A stretch of DNA of 64,000 nucleotides from NCBI GenBank assembly GCA_037443185.1, contig JBBIOV010000003.1, positions 5,458 through 69,457 of the forward strand. The letters are read 5' to 3'. The DNA is from a bacterium. Its GTDB lineage: Bacteria; Patescibacteriota; Minisyncoccia; 2-01-FULL-47-10; JBBIMT01. A program made the position numbers and the translations under genes. The stretch's first letter is position 1. Every line of letters starts with the position of its first letter. Positions 23,629-45,164 of this stretch are shown piece by piece. Under the pieces are notes generated by a model. The model did not search any database. It was given only the letters and a program-made list of their open reading frames with translations, and had not been told where the DNA came from.

Positions 23629-25980
23629 ATGATGATAATATTTATATTATTTATTTTATTTTTTTTGCCTTTTTTTGCTCTTGGAGCGCCACCACAAATT
23701 TTATCATTTGATATCCAAGAAAGTGGCCCTTTTTATCAAGGACAGACAATTACCTTTAAATATAACATTTGTGATTCTGACAATGATATCACGGAAGCTT
23801 CTTTGTCTTATGGCGACGGCATAGTCGATTTTTTAAATTTTCAAAATTGTCTTTTAAGCCAACAAACTCATCTTTTTCAAACAAGCGGACTTTTCACTGT
23901 TACTTTGCGCGCAAAAGATAGTAGCGGTAACCAAATCACTCAAACGAAAAATATTGAGATTTTAATAAATTTCCCACCTGAGATTAAAAAATTTTCTTTT
24001 TCTTCAAAAAGCGTTTTTTCTTCAGGAGGAACAATTTTTTTTGAAATTATTGCCTGTCCCCCTGATAAAAACGATGTTCTTGCCGGCTTTATTGATTTTG
24101 GAGATAACACTAATTTAAGTTTTAGCCCCAAATGCGAGTTATCAAATCCAACCATTATTGCGCATCAATATTTAGGTCCTGGTATTTATCCAATTAAATT
24201 AATAGTTCAAGATGCGCGCGGATTAAGATCAGAAAAATCTTTAAAAATTACTATAAAACCTCCTTTAGGCGTAAAGGTAAATTTTCCTCCAGAAATTAAA
24301 CGCTTTTCTTTATCTTCAAAAAGTCAGCTATTTACCGGTGGGATTGTGTATTTTGAAATCAATATTTGTGATCCCAATGATACTAATTTTATTGCCGCAA
24401 GTCTTGATTTTGGAGATGGGCAGATTCAAAATTTTACTCCAACTTGTGACGCGGTGACTCCTACTATAATTACTCATCAATACTTTAGTGCTAAAAATTA
24501 TAAAGCAAAGTTAACTGCTCAAGATCAATTTGGATTGAAAACTGAAAAATTGCTTAATTTTACAATCAAGAGTCAAAATATCGTACAACCTAATTTTCCC
24601 CCGGAAATAAAACGATTTAATATTTCCTCGCGCAGTCAATTTTTCCCAGGAGGAATCGTTTATTTTGAGATTAATGTTTGTGATCCTAATATTTCGGATT
24701 TGGTAGCGGCAAATTTAGATTTTGGAGATGGCACAAATCAAAGTTTTACGCCAAGTTGTTTAAGTTCAGAACCAAATATTCTCTCTCACCAATATTTGCT
24801 TTCTAATAACTACAAAGCCACATTAACAGCTAAAGATCAAGCAGGGCTACAAAGTCAGAAATCTTTATATTTTACTATAACTATTCCTGGTAATCGTGTG
24901 CCAGTAGCAAATTTTAGTTTCACTCCATCAGCGCCTCAAGCTGAATCTACGGTATATTTTATTGATAAATCAACTGATAATGATAAGGTATCTTCCATTA
25001 CCTCTTGGCAGTGGGATTTTGGAGATGGATTCACCTCAACAGTGCAACATCCTACTCATACTTATGCCAAAAGCGGGAGTTATAAAGTATCTTTAGTAGT
25101 TAAAGATAGCGGCAATCTAAGCTCGCGTGCTGAAAAAATTATAAGTATAAAAGATGTGCCCAATAACCCACCAATTGCCAATTTTACTTTTTCGCCACAA
25201 TATCCCAAAATAAATCAAATTATTTATTTTACTGATAAATCTTATGATAATGATAAAGAACGCGGTGGCTATATCAAGTCATGGTACTGGTCTTTTGGCG
25301 ATGGAGAAACATCAACATTACAACATCCAACTAAAATTTACAACAAAAGTGGCAATTTTAAAGTTCGATTAACTGTTACAGATAATGGTGGTTTAAGCTC
25401 TTCTTTTTCTCAAAATATTTCTATTCCTTTAGGCGGTATCATAACCCAATTTAAAAAATCTGGCAAAGCTCATCAATCAATTGATAAAAATTATATCATC
25501 AAAAATGGGGATCTTGTTAAAGAAAGCTCAAGCGGAAAAATTTGGCATATCATTAATAATAAAAAGCACTGGATACCAAATGAAGAAATATTCAATCTTT
25601 ATGGTTTCTCATTTGACCAAATTCGTTTAGTTTCTTCTTCGCAGCTTGCTAAATTTAAACGAGCGGCTCTTTTAAAGAATCCTGTTGATGGAAAAATTTA
25701 CTATTTACATGCAGATGGTCGTAAACGTCACTTAAGGACCGCGCTGGTTTTTTTGTCTTATGGAAATAAATGGGAAGATGTGATAACGGTTTTGCCTGAA
25801 GAATTAGAAAGTTATCCGGATATAATGTTTATTAAATTGTCCGGTATTCCCAAAATTTTTATGATTGAAAATGGAGTTAAAAGACCAATTATCAATCCCG
25901 ATTCAGTTGCCAAGTCTGAAGCGGTTTTTGTTAATAAAATTGAATTTAATGCCTATCTTAATGGTCCTCCTATTGATTAA
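23629..25980 (+). CDS. Secreted multi-repeat surface protein with PKD-like domains and a C-terminal globular region
   Basis: Signal peptide, then three ~105-aa repeats (NFPPEIKRFS.SS.S.F..GGIVYFEINICDPN...DFGDG..Q.FTP.C....P.I..HQY) and two PKD repeats (W.WDFGDG.TST.QHPT..Y.KSG.YKV.L.V.D.G.LSS). Confidence 0.65.
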   Translation: MMIIFILFILFFLPFFALGAPPQILSFDIQESGPFYQGQTITFKYNICDSDNDITEASLSYGDGIVDFLNFQNCLLSQQTHLFQTSGLFTVTLRAKDSSGNQITQTKNIEILINFPPEIKKFSFSSKSVFSSGGTIFFEIIACPPDKNDVLAGFIDFGDNTNLSFSPKCELSNPTIIAHQYLGPGIYPIKLIVQDARGLRSEKSLKITIKPPLGVKVNFPPEIKRFSLSSKSQLFTGGIVYFEINICDPNDTNFIAASLDFGDGQIQNFTPTCDAVTPTIITHQYFSAKNYKAKLTAQDQFGLKTEKLLNFTIKSQNIVQPNFPPEIKRFNISSRSQFFPGGIVYFEINVCDPNISDLVAANLDFGDGTNQSFTPSCLSSEPNILSHQYLLSNNYKATLTAKDQAGLQSQKSLYFTITIPGNRVPVANFSFTPSAPQAESTVYFIDKSTDNDKVSSITSWQWDFGDGFTSTVQHPTHTYAKSGSYKVSLVVKDSGNLSSRAEKIISIKDVPNNPPIANFTFSPQYPKINQIIYFTDKSYDNDKERGGYIKSWYWSFGDGETSTLQHPTKIYNKSGNFKVRLTVTDNGGLSSSFSQNISIPLGGIITQFKKSGKAHQSIDKNYIIKNGDLVKESSSGKIWHIINNKKHWIPNEEIFNLYGFSFDQIRLVSSSQLAKFKRAALLKNPVDGKIYYLHADGRKRHLRTALVFLSYGNKWEDVITVLPEELESYPDIMFIKLSGIPKIFMIENGVKRPIINPDSVAKSEAVFVNKIEFNAYLNGPPID
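23965..24905 (+). repeat. Intragenic tandem repeat, 3 x ~315 bp at ~70-75% identity, encoding the PKD-like repeats
   Basis: Units beginning aatttcccacctgagattaaaaaatt, aattttcctccagaaattaaacgctt and aattttcccccggaaataaaacgatt align along their whole length. Confidence 0.6.
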
Positions 25981-28937: not shown

Positions 28938-30026
28938 ATGATTAAAAAAACATTCTCTTTATTTCTTTTAGGAGGAACATTGGGGATATTTTTTTTGCTT
29001 TTTCTTATAAAAGTTAATTCTCAAACCTCTGCCTCAATATGGATAGATGCTCAAAGAATTTTTTTAAACGGTAATCCAAGATTTTTAGATGGCACTTTTG
29101 TTAATCCAAATACAACGCCATTACAAGTGGTGATTTTTGATACAAATAATATCCGTCCTGTAAGAAAACAACCTTTAGATAGCTCTTTGGCTTTTTCTGT
29201 TTCAATGCTTTCTTGTTCTGATGTTTTTTTCTATGAGAGTGTATTTTCAGGTAAAATCATAAATTCAGCTTCAATTTCTCCTGGCAATGGCATCTCAAGA
29301 GACTTAATCGGTAATAATTTTAAATTAATTAATTGCGATAGTAATTTAGGCGATTTTAATGAAGTACGACTTGATGGATCAACGGTCAAAATTTTTTCTT
29401 CATCTAAGATATTACCGCTTATAAATGGCGTGAATATCAATATGAATAATACACCACTTGCGGTGGTTATTTTTGATGGCCGAACTTTTTTAAGGAGAGT
29501 ACCTTTAGTTTCTAATAATGATTCTTTTAGTATTTTAGAAGTTCCCTGTCTAACTAATGCAAGATGGTATTATGAGACTTTGTCAACTCATATTCCGGTA
29601 AACAGCGGTTTTTTAAATGCTGGTCCTGGGATAATAAAAAATTTTGCCGGTCAAAATTTTCAATTGGCATCTTGTAATAATCATCCACCACCACCTCAAG
29701 GTTCTTCAGTTTATTTAAATGGAACGCAAATAACATTAAATCCTTATTCAAATCAAGTGACTTTGGTAAACGGCAGTATTGTTAGTCCTTATTCTAATCC
29801 TCTTGAGGCTGTGATTTTTGATTTATTTGGCAGAGGCATTAGCTATGTTGTTTGGCTTGATTCTAATTTATCGTTTAATCGATCCCTTATCCCGACAGTG
29901 GGAAATTATGTTTGGTTTTATAGATTGCGTGGTGGTGGTATGGCGGTAAATAGCGGTACTTTAAGTCCCGGAACTTGTATCTCCTATGATTTAACAGGCG
30001 GAAACTTTCGTTTGGTATGCAACTAA
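28938..30026 (+). CDS. Secreted hypothetical protein built from four ~85-aa internal repeats
   Basis: Signal peptide. The repeated pattern is NG..I.(N)..P..VVIFD.......P........F.V....C.......... ...N.G.GI...L.G.NF.L..C, with conserved Cys pairs. No known family. Confidence 0.4.
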   Translation: MIKKTFSLFLLGGTLGIFFLLFLIKVNSQTSASIWIDAQRIFLNGNPRFLDGTFVNPNTTPLQVVIFDTNNIRPVRKQPLDSSLAFSVSMLSCSDVFFYESVFSGKIINSASISPGNGISRDLIGNNFKLINCDSNLGDFNEVRLDGSTVKIFSSSKILPLINGVNINMNNTPLAVVIFDGRTFLRRVPLVSNNDSFSILEVPCLTNARWYYETLSTHIPVNSGFLNAGPGIIKNFAGQNFQLASCNNHPPPPQGSSVYLNGTQITLNPYSNQVTLVNGSIVSPYSNPLEAVIFDLFGRGISYVVWLDSNLSFNRSLIPTVGNYVWFYRLRGGGMAVNSGTLSPGTCISYDLTGGNFRLVCN

Positions 30027-30112: not shown

Positions 30113-30892
30113 ATGGCAAATAATAATTTACTTGAAAATATACCAAAAAATGTTTCGTGGGCTTTAACTATTTTTTTAATTTTAGTGTCGATTGGACAAA
30201 TTTTTTCAATTATTAATGAAATTAAAAAAGGACGTTATATTGGCCAAGAGTTTGAAAGAGTGCATACCATTACAGTATCTGGTAAAGGGAAGATTGAAAG
30301 AGTGCCAGATTTAGCTGAAATGACAATTTCAGTTTTTTCAAAAAGCTTTGATTTAAAAAAAGCGCAAGAGGAAAATAGCATTAAAGCTAACGCTATTATC
30401 AATTTTTTAAGTCAACAAGGCATTAAAAAAGAAGATATCAAAACAAGTCAGTATAATATTTATCCCCAATATGATTACTCGCAATATGGTAGAAAATTTT
30501 TAGGATATGAAATTCGTAATTCTTTGAATGTTAAAGTTCGTGATTTTGGAAAAATAGGTTTAATCATCGAAAAAGCTGTGGAGCTTGGGGCTAATGAAGT
30601 TTATAATTTAATTTTTACTATTGATAAAAAAGAAGAAGTTCAAAACGAAGCTCGTAAGAAAGCAATCGATAATGCTCGCGAAAAAGCTAAAGTTTTAGCT
30701 GATCAACTGGGTGTCGTTTTAGTTCGTATTACTAATTTTTCTGAAAATTCTGATTATGATCTTGAGCGGTCATTTTACATTACTGAAAAAACAGGTATAG
30801 TTGGGGGCAGTAACGAAATGCCGCAAATTGAGCCTGGTCAAAATGAAATTAAATCAAGTGTATCGATTACTTACGAAATAGCAACAAAATAA
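30113..30892 (+). CDS. SIMPL-domain (DUF541) secreted/periplasmic protein
   Basis: N-terminal TM, then ITVSGKGKIERVPDLAEMTISV...IKTSQYNIYPQYDY...GYEIRNSLNVKVRDFGKIGLIIEKAVELGANEV, the SIMPL/26-kDa periplasmic immunogenic protein pattern. Confidence 0.7.
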   Translation: MANNNLLENIPKNVSWALTIFLILVSIGQIFSIINEIKKGRYIGQEFERVHTITVSGKGKIERVPDLAEMTISVFSKSFDLKKAQEENSIKANAIINFLSQQGIKKEDIKTSQYNIYPQYDYSQYGRKFLGYEIRNSLNVKVRDFGKIGLIIEKAVELGANEVYNLIFTIDKKEEVQNEARKKAIDNAREKAKVLADQLGVVLVRITNFSENSDYDLERSFYITEKTGIVGGSNEMPQIEPGQNEIKSSVSITYEIATK

Positions 30893-30931
30893 AATTAGTT
30901 TGCTTACAAGATAATAAAAAAATAAAGTTCA

Positions 30932-31741
30932 ATGGCTCTGGCTACTTTAATTTTATATTCTTTAACTCAATTTTTTGGACTTTTTATTGCTAAAGAATTT
31001 TTGAGTTCTTGGAATCAAGAGGAAATTTTAAAAATTACGCAAGCTCAAAATCCACTTGGCTTTTTGATTTATACTTTTGCTTTTTTGTTTATTGTTCTTT
31101 CCTTGCTTTATTTTAGAAAAAGACTTAACTTTATTTTAAAGTATTTTATTGCTTTGATAGTTTGGGCTGGCATTGCAATTTCTTTTCAACTTTTTTCTCC
31201 AGTTTTGTTATCTTATTTATTGGCTATTTTTATTACTTGGTTATTTTTTATTTTGCGTGAGATTTGGTTTCATAATTTAGTTATAGTTTTTTCTGTGGCA
31301 GGAATCGCTGGATTGGCTGGTTTAAATTTTTCAATTTTTGGACTGATTTTCATTTTAGCGGCAGTATCTATTTACGATTATTGGTTAATAAAATCGAAAC
31401 GCCATTTGATTTATATTGCTGAGAATTTTTTAAAAGAACATATATTTTTAGGACTTGTAGCTCCTAAGCATTGCCGAGGATATTTTTGTAGTTTTCAAAA
31501 AGAAGATTTTAAACATAATAATTACATTTTACTGGGCGCTGGAGATTTGGCCTTTCCTTTAATGTTTGCAACATCAGTTCTAAAAAATTACGGTTTAAAT
31601 GAGGCGATAATTGTTGCGTTTTTTGGCATTATCGGTTTATTTTTTGTAAAATATTTCGCAAAAAAGTCTCGTTTAATTCCAGCCCTTATTCCAATTACCG
31701 CCTTTTTAATGTTAGGTTATATTTTCACGATATTATTTTAA
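30932..31741 (+). CDS. Presenilin/signal-peptide-peptidase homologue (A22 intramembrane aspartyl protease, PSH-like)
   Basis: Nine hydrophobic segments. The A22 motifs appear in order with correct spacing: YD (AAVSIYDYW), GxGD (LLGAGDLAFP) and PAL (RLIPALIP). Confidence 0.55.
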   Translation: MALATLILYSLTQFFGLFIAKEFLSSWNQEEILKITQAQNPLGFLIYTFAFLFIVLSLLYFRKRLNFILKYFIALIVWAGIAISFQLFSPVLLSYLLAIFITWLFFILREIWFHNLVIVFSVAGIAGLAGLNFSIFGLIFILAAVSIYDYWLIKSKRHLIYIAENFLKEHIFLGLVAPKHCRGYFCSFQKEDFKHNNYILLGAGDLAFPLMFATSVLKNYGLNEAIIVAFFGIIGLFFVKYFAKKSRLIPALIPITAFLMLGYIFTILF

Positions 31742-31941
31742 TTGGACTTTTTAAATTTTTGGCTTGCGATGCTAAAGAAATTAAGAAAGATTGGCAAATA
31801 GATACATTAGTGTTTGAATTTTGGACTTTTGTCGTTTAGCAAAAACAGATTTTAAAAAGGTTTAAGTTGCAATTTTTTTGTTTTTATGTATCATTAACTA
31901 TAAAGATAACCTTCATCAAAAACGATGAAGTTTTTTTAATT

Positions 31942-32892
31942 ATGACCATAAAACAAGTATACAATTTAGCGATTAATATAGGAATTAAAAACGATTTTCG
32001 TTCAAAAGTACAGATCAATAAAATTTTAGCTCGACAGAAAAAGAAGTTTGAAAAATTATCTAAAGAAGAAAAAGAAGTTTTTGATATTGAAATTTTACAT
32101 AATCCATATTCTGACACGAGAATTTTATTTGGCGATTTAAATAAAAAAGTAAAGAAAGTGTTAGTAGGTATTGATATTGCTGGCGATGAACTTTTATTGG
32201 CTGATAAACTGGGTGATATTGATTTAGTTATCGCTCATCATCCAATAGGACGGGCGCTTGCTGGACTTGATGAAGTAATGCATTATCAGGCGGATATATT
32301 AGCTTATTATGGAATACCTATAAATATTGCCGAAAGTCTTTTAAAAACAAGAGTAGATGAAGTAGCGCGTAATCTTTCGCCAATCAATCATAATCGCACT
32401 GTTGATATGGCACGACTTTTAAATATTTCTTTAATGTGTGTTCATACACCTACTGATAATTTGGTGGCTCGATTTGTAGAAAAGGAGATAAAAAAAGAAA
32501 ATCCAGAATATGTTGAGGATTTGATGAATCTTTTAAAAAAAATCCCAGAATACAAGGAAGCGACAAAAGAAAAAATGGGGCCTGAGCTTTTCGCTGGATC
32601 TCTGGATAATCGTTGCGGTAAAATTGCTCTTACAGAGATTACAGGCGGTACCGAAGGATCTCCTAAAATCTATCACGAAATGGCTCATGGAGGGATTGGT
32701 ACTATCGTGGGAATGCATATGTCAGAAAAACATACTGAAGAGGTAAAAAAAGCCCACATTAATGCTGTTATCGCTGGTCACATGTCTTCTGATTCTTTGG
32801 GGATGAATTTATTTTTAGATGAGCTTGAGCGGTGTAATATAAAAATTATACCGACATCAGGACTAATTAGAGTTTCGCGCGTCAAAAAATAA
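31942..32892 (+). CDS. Nif3-family (YbgI/YqfO-like) dinuclear metal-centre protein
   Basis: ..LVGIDIAG.. and ..DLVIAHHPIGRAL.. match the N-terminal Nif3 pattern. The C-terminus has ..NAVIAGHMSSDSLGMN.. The start is set at MTIKQVYNL. Confidence 0.5.
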   Translation: MTIKQVYNLAINIGIKNDFRSKVQINKILARQKKKFEKLSKEEKEVFDIEILHNPYSDTRILFGDLNKKVKKVLVGIDIAGDELLLADKLGDIDLVIAHHPIGRALAGLDEVMHYQADILAYYGIPINIAESLLKTRVDEVARNLSPINHNRTVDMARLLNISLMCVHTPTDNLVARFVEKEIKKENPEYVEDLMNLLKKIPEYKEATKEKMGPELFAGSLDNRCGKIALTEITGGTEGSPKIYHEMAHGGIGTIVGMHMSEKHTEEVKKAHINAVIAGHMSSDSLGMNLFLDELERCNIKIIPTSGLIRVSRVKK

Positions 32893-36616: not shown

Positions 36617-38899
36617 CTATTTTAAAAATGGCGAAAAATTTAAAGAAATTATTTCGTCGTATTTTAAAATTGTTTGGTAAGTGATTTTACCTTTTTCAAT
36701 ATTTAAATTATTTGGGAAATTCCAAGCGATACTCCAATTTTTTGGATAAAAAATATTGATAATGATTTTTTGATTTGTCATTCCGGGTTGTTTTTGGAGA
36801 TAAAGCTGATATTTAGGCTTTAAAAGATCTACTTTTACAACAGATAAATATTCAATTGCTACCTTTAATTCTTCTTTTGGTGAGACATAAGTCCAAGCGC
36901 CAAAAGTACTTTTCCCAGTTTCTTTAGCAATATAAAAACCGCTTGAATCAATAATTGTTGCTTTTTCTTGGGCTAAAATATCAGCGTCAGGACTAAACTT
37001 TGCTTTAATATAATCAATTCGCGGAGAGATAAATTCGATAGTATGGCCATTTGCTTTTAAAAGTTTTGATTCTAAAGGAGTATAAAATCTTAAGTAATTA
37101 GTGTTGACCCTGTTGTACCAATCATAAATAGAATCTCCTCCTAAGTGTTTTCTAATGACTTCAACATAATTTTTAACTAATCCCTTATCTGATATAGCAA
37201 TATTTAAATTAATAGTTTGTTCAATAACCCGATCAGTTTTATAGCCGCCTAAATTTGTATTAACCACTGCTAAATAATCTCCATCAAAATCTACTACCTT
37301 ACCAGACCAGCCTTGTGCTTCAACAAAATTTTGAAGCTTTTCATCATTAAAATAAAACATAATATCTTTTCTATCAAGCATATCTAAAATTTCGCTAAAA
37401 AAGTTAGCTAAATCATTAATCGTAAAGTGTGCAAATTTTTTAATTATCTCTTCTCCCAAATCGGCTAAAATTGTCTTTGGTTGTCTAAGATTTTTATCGT
37501 AATCTACTTCAACTTCGTATTGTAAAATATCAATAAAATTATCTTCGGTAATTAAGGCTTCGTGATTTTTTAAATAAATAGGCCCGGTGATTTTTAAAAG
37601 TGATTTTAAAAGTGCTGGTGTTATGGCAATTACTCCATCAGTAGTTTCGCCACCTGTTTTTTCGTAAAACCATTGAAGTTTCTTTGCTGAAGAAGGAAAA
37701 TCAAAGAACCAATTGGCATCATGAAAAGACCAAGCGGCGGAAATTTTTTGAATTGGTTGTGGTGGAATAATTAAGGCTCTAAGCTGTCCATCAATATTAT
37801 AAACATCATCTATTTTGAATTTTTTCACTATCCCATCATCTATTATCACAAAACCGTAAGATCCTATAAAACCACCCGTTGGTCTAATTTCAGAGGGATT
37901 TTGAAAGATGAGTAAATATGTTCGTGGATTATTGATGCCTAGAGCTTCTTCTAAAGATGGTAAAAAATCATTGAGAAAACGTGACAGATATTGAAAAGGT
38001 TCAACGATTTCTTTAATTTTACTTTCATATTTTCCTAGAGAAGGTGGTAAATTATTAAAATTGATTTCGTTCAGTAATTGTTGAGTATCATTTGATAACA
38101 AGTTAAATCTTTTTAGATTTGGTAAAATAGTACTAAATTTAATTGTTTCTTTACTGATTGAAGTTATTTTATCTATTAACATTGAAAAAATTTGTCCCAT
38201 TTCAGTTAAATTTTTGGCAATTTGTAAAAGCTTTTCGCCTTGGGTCAACTGTGTTGATATTACTGGCAAAGAAGCTAATAAAAATGTTGTCGTTTGGCTT
38301 AAATTGTCGATTTTTTCCTGAGCTTGAACTAATTTCTCAAGGGCGTTTGAAAAATTTAATGTAGCTTCAGAAAAAGATTTATTCTCTAAAGAGCTTGCCG
38401 CTTTAACAACATCAGAAATAAATTCTTTCCCTTTTCCTTTTATATATTCCTGTGTTAAATTTGCCTGATATAAATTAGCGCTTAAAGGAACTATCAGGGC
38501 AACTAAAATAGCTGATATACCAAACCTAATAGTAACTGCAAAATTTTTTAAACGAAAACTTTTTTGTCCGGAAATTCTATATCTTGGGTTTTCTTGCGGT
38601 GATTCTTGTTTTTGGTATGGTATTTCAGTTTCTTTTGAGATTGTTTGTTCATTTTGGGCATTTTGACTTTTTTCAAATTTGATTTCTTTTTTTGTTTCAA
38701 TTTTTATGAAATCTCTTTTTTCTTGTTCATTTAACTTCGGTTTTTGCTGATTTACTCGCTCAATAGTGATATGTGCTTCAAAGGGTAAAGGTTTTGATTT
38801 TTTTATAATATCAAATACTAAAACTTTTCCTTGTGATTGAGGATTTTGAGTAGATTTTAGTAAATTTTCTTTGTCTAACTTTACCCTGATTTCATCCAT
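36617..38899 (-). CDS. Large membrane-anchored extracytoplasmic protein, DUF4012-like
   Basis: An N-terminal Q/E/K-rich region, one TM, and a ~600-aa ectodomain containing NP.EIRPTGGFIGSYGFV, which resembles the DUF4012 core. Confidence 0.4.
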   Translation of the reverse strand: MDEIRVKLDKENLLKSTQNPQSQGKVLVFDIIKKSKPLPFEAHITIERVNQQKPKLNEQEKRDFIKIETKKEIKFEKSQNAQNEQTISKETEIPYQKQESPQENPRYRISGQKSFRLKNFAVTIRFGISAILVALIVPLSANLYQANLTQEYIKGKGKEFISDVVKAASSLENKSFSEATLNFSNALEKLVQAQEKIDNLSQTTTFLLASLPVISTQLTQGEKLLQIAKNLTEMGQIFSMLIDKITSISKETIKFSTILPNLKRFNLLSNDTQQLLNEINFNNLPPSLGKYESKIKEIVEPFQYLSRFLNDFLPSLEEALGINNPRTYLLIFQNPSEIRPTGGFIGSYGFVIIDDGIVKKFKIDDVYNIDGQLRALIIPPQPIQKISAAWSFHDANWFFDFPSSAKKLQWFYEKTGGETTDGVIAITPALLKSLLKITGPIYLKNHEALITEDNFIDILQYEVEVDYDKNLRQPKTILADLGEEIIKKFAHFTINDLANFFSEILDMLDRKDIMFYFNDEKLQNFVEAQGWSGKVVDFDGDYLAVVNTNLGGYKTDRVIEQTINLNIAISDKGLVKNYVEVIRKHLGGDSIYDWYNRVNTNYLRFYTPLESKLLKANGHTIEFISPRIDYIKAKFSPDADILAQEKATIIDSSGFYIAKETGKSTFGAWTYVSPKEELKVAIEYLSVVKVDLLKPKYQLYLQKQPGMTNQKIIINIFYPKNWSIAWNFPNNLNIEKGKITYQTILKYDEIISLNFSPFLK

Positions 38900-39533: not shown

Positions 39534-39604
39534 CGGGACATAGTATAATGGTAGTACGCATCCTTCGGGAGGATGTAGTCCCAGTTCGAATCTGGGTGTC
39601 CCGA
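39534..39604 (+). tRNA. tRNA-Pro (anticodon CGG)
   Basis: Cloverleaf with a perfect 7-bp acceptor stem cgggaca/tgtcccg, an anticodon stem catcc/ggatg with loop ttCGGga, a T arm cccag-TTCGAAT-ctggg and discriminator A. C1:G72 is a bacterial tRNA-Pro identity feature. CCA is not encoded. Confidence 0.8.
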
Positions 39605-44648: not shown

Positions 44649-44796
44649 TGACTCCCTCCTTTTATTCGCTTACTTAAGCCAAAAATTTAAAGTACCAACC
44701 TCTTTATTTTTCTTTAATATAACATAAAATTATTTTTAAGTCAATAATCTTAAATTTGGCAAATGCCTTGAAATTGGTTTTTGCAAAATTAAGCTG

Positions 44797-45164
44797 TGGA
44801 CGCGGAGGGAATCGAACCCTCGTGAGAATAAAACTTCTACAAAGGTTTAGCAGGTTTAGTTGATTTTTAATCTCGCTTTAACAGTAAAAAATCAACAAAA
44901 TCTGCTAAAGCAAAGTCAAGTTTGACTTGACGACAGATCTAAGAATTTCGGAAAAAGACAAGATCAGTTTCTTTTTCCTATCCCCGTCCCTACTTTATTT
45001 TCTCTACGGAGACTTGAGAAAATAAAGCCTCGGTTCTTAAGCGAACGCGAAGGAAGGTGCAAAGGTGTTCACACTTTTTTTGCTAAATTTTTTTAACGAA
45101 GCCTTTAGCCGCTCCGACCTGCCCGATTGTAAAAGATCTATCCTTCAAATCCAAGAACGCGCCC
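44797..45164 (-). ncRNA. ssrA: tmRNA (ssrA), ~368 nt
   Basis: The minus-strand RNA begins GGGCGCGUUCUUGGAUUUGAAGG (tRNA-like 5' end) and ends ..CGAGGGUUCGAUUCCCUCCGCGUCCA (T-arm GAGGG-UUCGAUU-CCCUC plus acceptor). The 5' GGGCGCG pairs with the 3' CGCGUCC. An internal tag-like frame ..AAA AAA AGU GUG AAC ACC UUU GCA CCU UCC UUC GCG UUC GCU UAA reads ..KKSVNTFAPSFAFA*. It lies immediately downstream of smpB. Confidence 0.8.

Follow-up and report, generated by a model that had tools for sequence, protein, structure and literature searches.

A probable PSH-type intramembrane aspartyl protease and its gene neighbourhood in a 64-kb stretch of bacterial DNA

The locus

The DNA considered here is a stretch of 64,000 nucleotides from contig JBBIOV010000003.1 (assembly GCA_037443185.1, positions 5,458 to 69,457), called the window below and read on its forward strand. 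It contains a gene for a 269-aa polytopic membrane protein, which is probably a stand-alone intramembrane aspartyl protease of the PSH (presenilin homologue) type (MEROPS clan AD, family A22, PF06550), held in the membrane in the presenilin orientation and not coupled to the SIMPL/DUF541 gene that precedes it. An initial annotation, made from the letters of the sequence, had recognised the YD, GxGD and PAL motifs of this protein in the canonical order of A22 proteases. That description holds, with YD at residue 148, GAGD at residue 202, PAL at residue 250 and nine predicted membrane helices. The features of the locus, in window coordinates, are the following.

30113-30892 (+): SIMPL/DUF541 gene, 259 aa, one N-terminal membrane anchor (about residues 13-38); adjoins the protease gene in this lineage only
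30893-30931 (+): spacer between the SIMPL and protease genes, 39 nt, AT-rich, without a terminator-like site
30932-31741 (+): gene for the probable PSH-type GxGD intramembrane aspartyl protease, 269 aa, nine membrane helices
31373-31378 (+): YD motif (Y148-D149) with the first catalytic aspartate, placed in membrane helix 6 (residues 135-154 of the model)
31535-31546 (+): GAGD motif (G202-D205) with the second catalytic aspartate, placed at the N-terminal end of membrane helix 7 (residues 203-220 of the model)
31679-31687 (+): PAL motif (P250-L252), directly ahead of membrane helix 9 (residues 252-268 of the model)
31911-31930 (+): hairpin and T-run resembling a terminator, after the stop codon of the protease gene and before the start codon of the NIF3-like gene; found by a consensus scan alone
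31942-32892 (+): NIF3/DUF34-like gene, 316 aa (PF01784, E 5e-8; PDB 3rxy, a NIF3 structure, E 3.8e-28)

Family assignment of the protease

The assignment to family A22 draws on four independent lines of evidence, namely sequence profiles, solved structures found by sequence, the modelled fold and selection on the active site. PF06550 (named 'SPP', the archaeal PSH family) aligns to residues 31-268 of the protease over profile positions 22-279 of 283 with a score of 47.3 bits, where the gathering cut-off is 23.9 (E 2.5e-12), and no other family is detected in a Pfam scan at E<=1. A search of solved structures with the single sequence returns PSH as the only match (4hyc and its sister entries, E 4.6e-6), and a 67-sequence family profile reaches the same structure at E 6.5e-20. 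The profile similarity to A22 on which the initial annotation had staked its identification is therefore present. In the alignment, Y148-D149 falls on Y161-D162 of PSH, and GAGD, with D205, on the GMGD of PSH, with D220. In PSH, D162 and D220 are the catalytic pair (PMC9282858; PMC2947513).

The characterised archaeal enzyme, PSH or MCMJR1 of Methanoculleus marisnigri (PDB 4hyc, 4hyg, 4y6k; PF06550; NF041679), is about 17-18% identical to the window protease. It differs in that the window protease has a bacterial host, lies on a bacterial branch separate from the archaeal one (vide infra) and carries a canonical PAL motif where PSH aligns as AGL. The eukaryotic members of A22 are more remote. 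Presenilin-1/2, the catalytic subunit of gamma-secretase (A22A), is represented in Pfam by PF01080, which does not match the protease at E<=1, and the loop between helices 6 and 7 is short in the window protein (about 48 residues). Bacteria are, in addition, not known to have the nicastrin, APH-1 and PEN-2 partners of presenilin. SPP and SPPL2a (A22B; PDB 9k92, 9k93) are about 10-12% identical, the eukaryotic SPP profile gives no match at E<=1, and the predicted membrane orientation is the opposite one (PMC2947513). The protease is accordingly placed neither with presenilin proper nor with the SPP/SPPL group.

Fold and membrane orientation

An AlphaFold2 model of the protease, built on the family alignment (mean predicted local distance difference test score, pLDDT, 82.8; predicted template modelling score, pTM, 0.81), has the nine-helix presenilin fold. 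It comprises nine long helices and a short helix 6a after the sixth, together with two strands (residues 174-178 and 198-202). D149 is placed in helix 6, D205 at the start of helix 7 and PAL before helix 9, so that neither aspartate falls outside the membrane helices, in agreement with the topology that the initial annotation had predicted. When the model is compared with the PDB by Foldseek, the only chains with E below about 0.5 are those of PSH, SPPL2a and presenilin-1/2, and the first unrelated chain appears at E>2.

The charges of the loops are strongly asymmetric. In the protease, 14 lysines and arginines lie in the loops after helices 2, 4, 6 and 8, as against a single one in the loops after helices 1, 3, 5 and 7; the corresponding family means are 3.5, 0.75, 7.9 and 2.5 on the one side, and 1.4, 0.02, 0.19 and 0.22 on the other. 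By the positive-inside rule, these charges predict that the long loop between helices 6 and 7, rich in lysine and arginine, is cytoplasmic together with the N-terminus and that the C-terminus is outside, which is the orientation of presenilin and PSH and the opposite of that of SPP. Among the eukaryotic enzymes, the difference between the presenilin and SPP orientations parallels a difference between type I and type II substrates (PMC2947513).

Proposed mechanism and the main rival function

In the mechanism proposed for this protein, D149 of helix 6 and D205 of helix 7 would face each other inside the bilayer and activate a molecule of water; a single-pass substrate would dock, and its membrane helix, once unwound, would be hydrolysed. 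The PAL region, together with helix 6a and the strand elements, would position the substrate as in PSH and presenilin, and the protease, like PSH, would need no cofactors. Its substrates may be single-pass helices or leftover membrane stubs, probably of type I (with the N-terminus outside), the fragments of which would be released or cleared. We infer that the enzyme is catalytically active, works without partners and prefers type I helices or stubs. We know of no natural substrate for any prokaryotic member of the family. A search of the window for type I single-pass candidate substrates yielded none with a C-terminal anchor, and no other intramembrane protease was found among the polytopic proteins encoded in the 64 kb.

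The main functional rival, unlikely but plausible, is that the enzyme serves as the signal-peptide peptidase of a reduced bacterium, clearing signal peptides from the membrane after signal peptidase has acted, a task that SPP performs in eukaryotes and that has been suggested for the archaeal homologues. Such a role would suit the name of the family. However, signal peptides have the type II orientation, and SPP-type enzymes have a topology that is the reverse of presenilin's (PMC2947513), whereas the loop charges of the window protease and of its family indicate the presenilin orientation.

Conservation, distribution and phylogeny

Conservation was computed on an alignment of 265 full-length relatives. 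Both aspartates, D149 and D205, are invariant (265/265), and Y148 is present in all but one (264/265). The glycines of the GxGD motif, G202 and G204, are each retained in 263 relatives, and the proline, alanine and leucine of PAL in 236, 256 and 263 of them, respectively. As judged from this pattern of sequence conservation, the active site is under selection.

Among the close relatives, some departures from the motifs are observed. The GxGD motif reads SGVD in one of them (P0006) and AAGD in another (P0004), and two close relatives carry PGL in place of PAL; in all of these sequences the aspartates are still fixed.

The family is large. When a profile built from the window protein and its first hits is run exhaustively with HMMER against 1.84 billion cluster representatives (50% identity), it matches 1,505 of them at E<=1e-3; the numbers are 942 for E<=1e-10 and 220 for E<=1e-30. 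A scan of GTDB with one genome per species and a single narrow peptide pattern gives 275 confirmed protease loci, and among the best 80 of these, 22 are bacterial, most of them carrying a Patescibacteria label, and the rest belong to DPANN or other archaea. The bacterial labels include Saccharibacteria, Paceibacterota, Parcubacteria, Nealsonbacteria, Kerfeldbacteria and 'Patescibacteria group', together with one Chloroflexi and several entries labelled simply 'bacterium'. Every hit in a word-indexed search carries PF06550. Several relatives are already named, as 'presenilin family intramembrane aspartyl protease [Patescibacteria group bacterium]' by NCBI and as 'presenilin-like A22 family membrane protease' by JGI.

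Bacterial members of the family are uncommon over bacteria overall; they are common and already annotated in Patescibacteria, and the family is widespread in DPANN archaea as well. The initial annotation had described bacterial presenilin homologues as rare and uncharacterised. The second adjective is apt, in that a literature search on presenilin-type proteases of Patescibacteria or the Candidate Phyla Radiation (CPR) found no relevant paper, while the first is wrong within Patescibacteria, given the numbers of clusters and loci above. For the archaeal presenilin-type enzymes, the biological function is listed as unknown in reviews (PMC9263693, PMC8305020).

In a rough neighbour-joining tree of 70 sequences, all of the 22 bacterial sequences lie on one side and the archaeal sequences on the other. 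The window protein groups with a 78%-identical relative on a long branch, next to the rest of the CPR sequences. The tree, rough as it is, suggests that the protease belongs to a large bacterial branch that is cleanly apart from the archaeal sequences.

Comparison with the named Patescibacteria proteases (for example P0177, P0257 and P0006) shows the same Pfam family, length and motifs, again in bacterial hosts; P0006 (encoded at 1002-1814 of locus L081) is 58% identical to the window protease and has the same gene neighbours. From the bulk of the CPR sequences the clade of the window protease is set apart as a long branch, with 25-36% identity. At 269 aa, the window protease lacks the N-terminal extension found in most CPR relatives (275-315 aa), and its clade has PALIP where PALPP is usual in CPR. 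The gene order also differs, being SIMPL-SPP-NIF3L in the window and NIF3L-DUF763-SPP in the usual CPR arrangement. The protease is thus a new and fairly divergent member of a known, already annotated family, and the locus adds no new mechanism.

Presenilin-family proteases are usually treated as enzymes of eukaryotes and archaea. A bacterial branch that is widespread in Patescibacteria, and whose active site is intact, could supply simple, tractable enzymes for study, and could hint at how reduced cells turn over their membrane proteins. This value attaches to the whole family, already represented in the databases, rather than to the present locus.

The SIMPL gene and its link to the protease

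The gene upstream of the protease encodes a full-length SIMPL/DUF541 domain, of the family that includes Brucella BP26 and E. coli YggE. PF04402 matches residues 53-254 of the 259-aa product over all of its length (profile positions 1-205 of 205, E 2e-50), and the protein also matches the structure of the periplasmic Brucella BP26 (PDB 4hvz, E 1.6e-23). Hydropathy reveals one hydrophobic segment, at residues 13-38, in keeping with the single N-terminal transmembrane helix assigned to this protein in the initial annotation; judging from its sequence, the segment appears to be an uncleaved anchor rather than a typical cleaved signal peptide. The SIMPL and protease genes, each single-copy within the 64-kb window, lie on the same strand with 39 nt and no terminator-like site between them, and co-transcription is plausible.

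Adjacency of the two genes is observed elsewhere only in the loci L001 (78% protease identity), L081/L082 (58%) and L083 (62%), with a gap of 21-52 nt in L001, L081 and L083. All of these share the window's block of genes, in the order MetRS, hypothetical (a repeat protein, vide infra), SIMPL, protease, NIF3-like, LepA and MurJ. Because this whole block is syntenic, the adjacency represents a single lineage with an inherited gene order, and not a set of independent cases.

Outside this lineage, the two genes do not occur together in the loci searched, from either side. All ORFs (open reading frames) of the best 80 of the 275 GTDB loci were screened by single-sequence phmmer at E 1e-3, and in 79 of the 80 no SIMPL gene is detectable within about 6 kb, the sole match being the 78%-identical relative. 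No SIMPL gene lies close to the protease in the nearest outgroups of the clade (P0008 and P0009, 28-35% identity). Conversely, the nearest SIMPL genes from outside the clade (42-46% identity, in five metagenome loci of which three are near-identical) have no protease homologue within 4 kb. Co-occurrence over independent lineages, which would mark a SIMPL-protease two-gene system, is thus absent from the loci examined.

The initial annotation had raised the possibility that the SIMPL protein is a substrate or partner of the protease. As a functional pair, the protease might cleave the anchor and release the SIMPL domain, or the SIMPL protein might act as a regulatory partner. In favour of such a pair are the common strand and the short gap without a terminator-like site, the retention of adjacency and a 21-52 nt gap down to 58% protease identity, the single membrane helix of the SIMPL protein, which is the general substrate type of A22-type enzymes, and the good conservation of its anchor and juxtamembrane stretch within the clade. 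Against it, the synteny of the seven-gene block deprives the adjacency of independent weight, none of the 79 other loci and neither of the two closest outgroups has a SIMPL gene near the protease, and the closest outside SIMPL genes lack a neighbouring protease. The SIMPL family is, moreover, widespread in bacteria without an A22 protease, as with YggE of E. coli and BP26 of Brucella, which also counts against the pairing.

The orientations of the two proteins provide a further argument. Because the SIMPL domain shares homology with a periplasmic protein, its anchor is probably of type II (N-in/C-out), to judge by sequence. A type II anchor does not match an enzyme in the presenilin orientation, which is tied to type I substrates (PMC2947513). 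The proposal of a functional pair is therefore rather unlikely, and the SIMPL gene is regarded as a neighbour through lineage-specific gene order, not as a demonstrated partner or substrate.

A more specific version, in which one divergent CPR lineage recruited a presenilin-type protease into a two-gene operon that sheds or regulates a membrane-anchored SIMPL protein by cleavage of its anchor, is a shade less likely still. If it were true, a natural substrate would for the first time be known for a prokaryotic presenilin homologue, and a presenilin-oriented enzyme would be able to handle an N-terminal anchor.

Other identities, and points against a stand-alone protease

It is very unlikely that the protein is not a working protease, being instead a degenerate relative or mainly an ion-leak channel or scaffold. 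The altered motifs of P0006 and P0004 indicate that the glycines of GxGD are not absolutely fixed in the clade, which would be compatible with such a reading. It is opposed by the two aspartates, present in every one of the 265 relatives, and by the near-invariance of the YD, GxGD and PAL positions; in the window protein itself all three motifs are intact, and the model keeps the A22 fold.

Membership in A24, the type IV prepilin and preflagellin peptidases, whose members are reportedly the usual bacterial GxGD proteases (the title of a paper by Steiner et al. from 2000 is said to present them in this way), is refuted by the Pfam scan, with PF06550 as its one family at E<=1, and by the fold matches, which include no A24 structure, while the PAL motif and nine-helix layout are features of A22, leaving this identity a negligible probability.

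Several considerations nevertheless weigh against the preferred interpretation of the protein as a stand-alone PSH-type protease in the presenilin orientation. NF041679, the NCBIfam equivalog model for archaeal PSH, matches from end to end but with 52.9 bits, under its cut-off of 125, so that by sequence the protease counts as homologous to the characterised enzyme but not as its equivalog. The bacterial members are known as sequences, and the assays of PSH itself were all carried out in detergent or liposomes with foreign substrates (PMC2947513). The positive-inside rule is the one source of the predicted orientation, and the suggested preference for type I substrates is transferred by analogy from presenilin. 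With respect to the SIMPL gene, the short gap to the protease is kept in all four clade members examined, which fits an operon and hence some functional link, and a single-sequence phmmer screen at E 1e-3 could overlook very divergent SIMPL genes. Finally, the phylum of the host (discussed below) is read from the labels of relatives.

The NIF3-like gene and the conserved neighbourhood

Two genes on either side of the protease were tallied in 16 CPR loci. The commonest neighbouring families are DUF763 (9 loci), NIF3/DUF34 (8), OMP decarboxylase (7), ELP3-like radical-SAM/GNAT proteins (6) and RtcB (3). When the NIF3-like protein of the window is used as the query, a homologue is found upstream of the protease and on the same strand in 14 of the 16 loci (L002, L003, L005, L008-L013, L015-L017, L028 and L053). 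The usual CPR order is RtcB, NIF3-like, DUF763, protease, ELP3-like radical SAM/GNAT (convergent) and methyltransferase. In the window, the NIF3-like gene adjoins the protease on the opposite side, and RtcB, DUF763 and ELP3-like genes are all absent from the 64 kb. The NIF3-like gene is thus a more widely conserved neighbour of the protease than the SIMPL gene, and is found beside it across distant CPR lineages. This linkage may simply be an old CPR gene order.

Across the same genomes, identity to the window is 55-63% for the NIF3-like proteins and 25-31% for the proteases. In a comparison of both proteins, the window stands at 59% (NIF3-like) and 27.5% (protease), versus 63-92% and 35-82% among the others. 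The possibility that the protease has diverged faster in the window's clade was considered, and no clear acceleration is apparent. The window is the most distant member in the NIF3-like protein too, and so looks like an outlying lineage.

The start of the NIF3-like gene requires some comment. The ORF list places it at a TTG codon at 31867, giving a product of 341 aa (31867-32892), whereas the homologues are 313-318 aa long. Given these lengths, and an exact 316-aa product on record, the start is likely to be the ATG at 31942. The hairpin and T-run at 31911-31930 lie directly upstream of this codon.

Host and other features of the window

The G+C content of the window is about 30% throughout. 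Genes for UppS, MetRS, LepA and MurJ surround the protease locus, and elsewhere the window encodes UvrB, LytR-CpsA-Psr, RmuC, dUTPase, a major facilitator superfamily (MFS) transporter, MgtC and a Wzy-like protein. A gene for transfer-messenger RNA (tmRNA) is located at 44794-45164 (-) (Rfam RF00023, 101 bits) and a tRNA gene at 39534-39604 (+); these are the only Rfam matches above the gathering score in the whole window. The presence of tmRNA, MurJ, UppS, UvrB, LytR-CpsA-Psr and LepA identifies the host as bacterial, and the protease gene most likely belongs to a low-GC bacterium of the Patescibacteria/CPR.

Three further proteins of the window may be mentioned. A 783-aa protein (23629-25980, +) combines multiple PKD domains with a hydrophobic segment at its N-terminus, and a protein of 760 aa (36617-38899, -) belongs to DUF4012; both are presumably surface-exposed. 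The hypothetical gene of the syntenic block, directly before the SIMPL gene (28938-30026, +), encodes a 362-aa protein with an N-terminal hydrophobic helix, which matches no Pfam or NCBIfam family. Internally it is made up of three repeats, each about 110 aa long and with a terminal G-x-N-F-x-L-x-x-C motif, and a 367-aa counterpart occupies the same position in L083.

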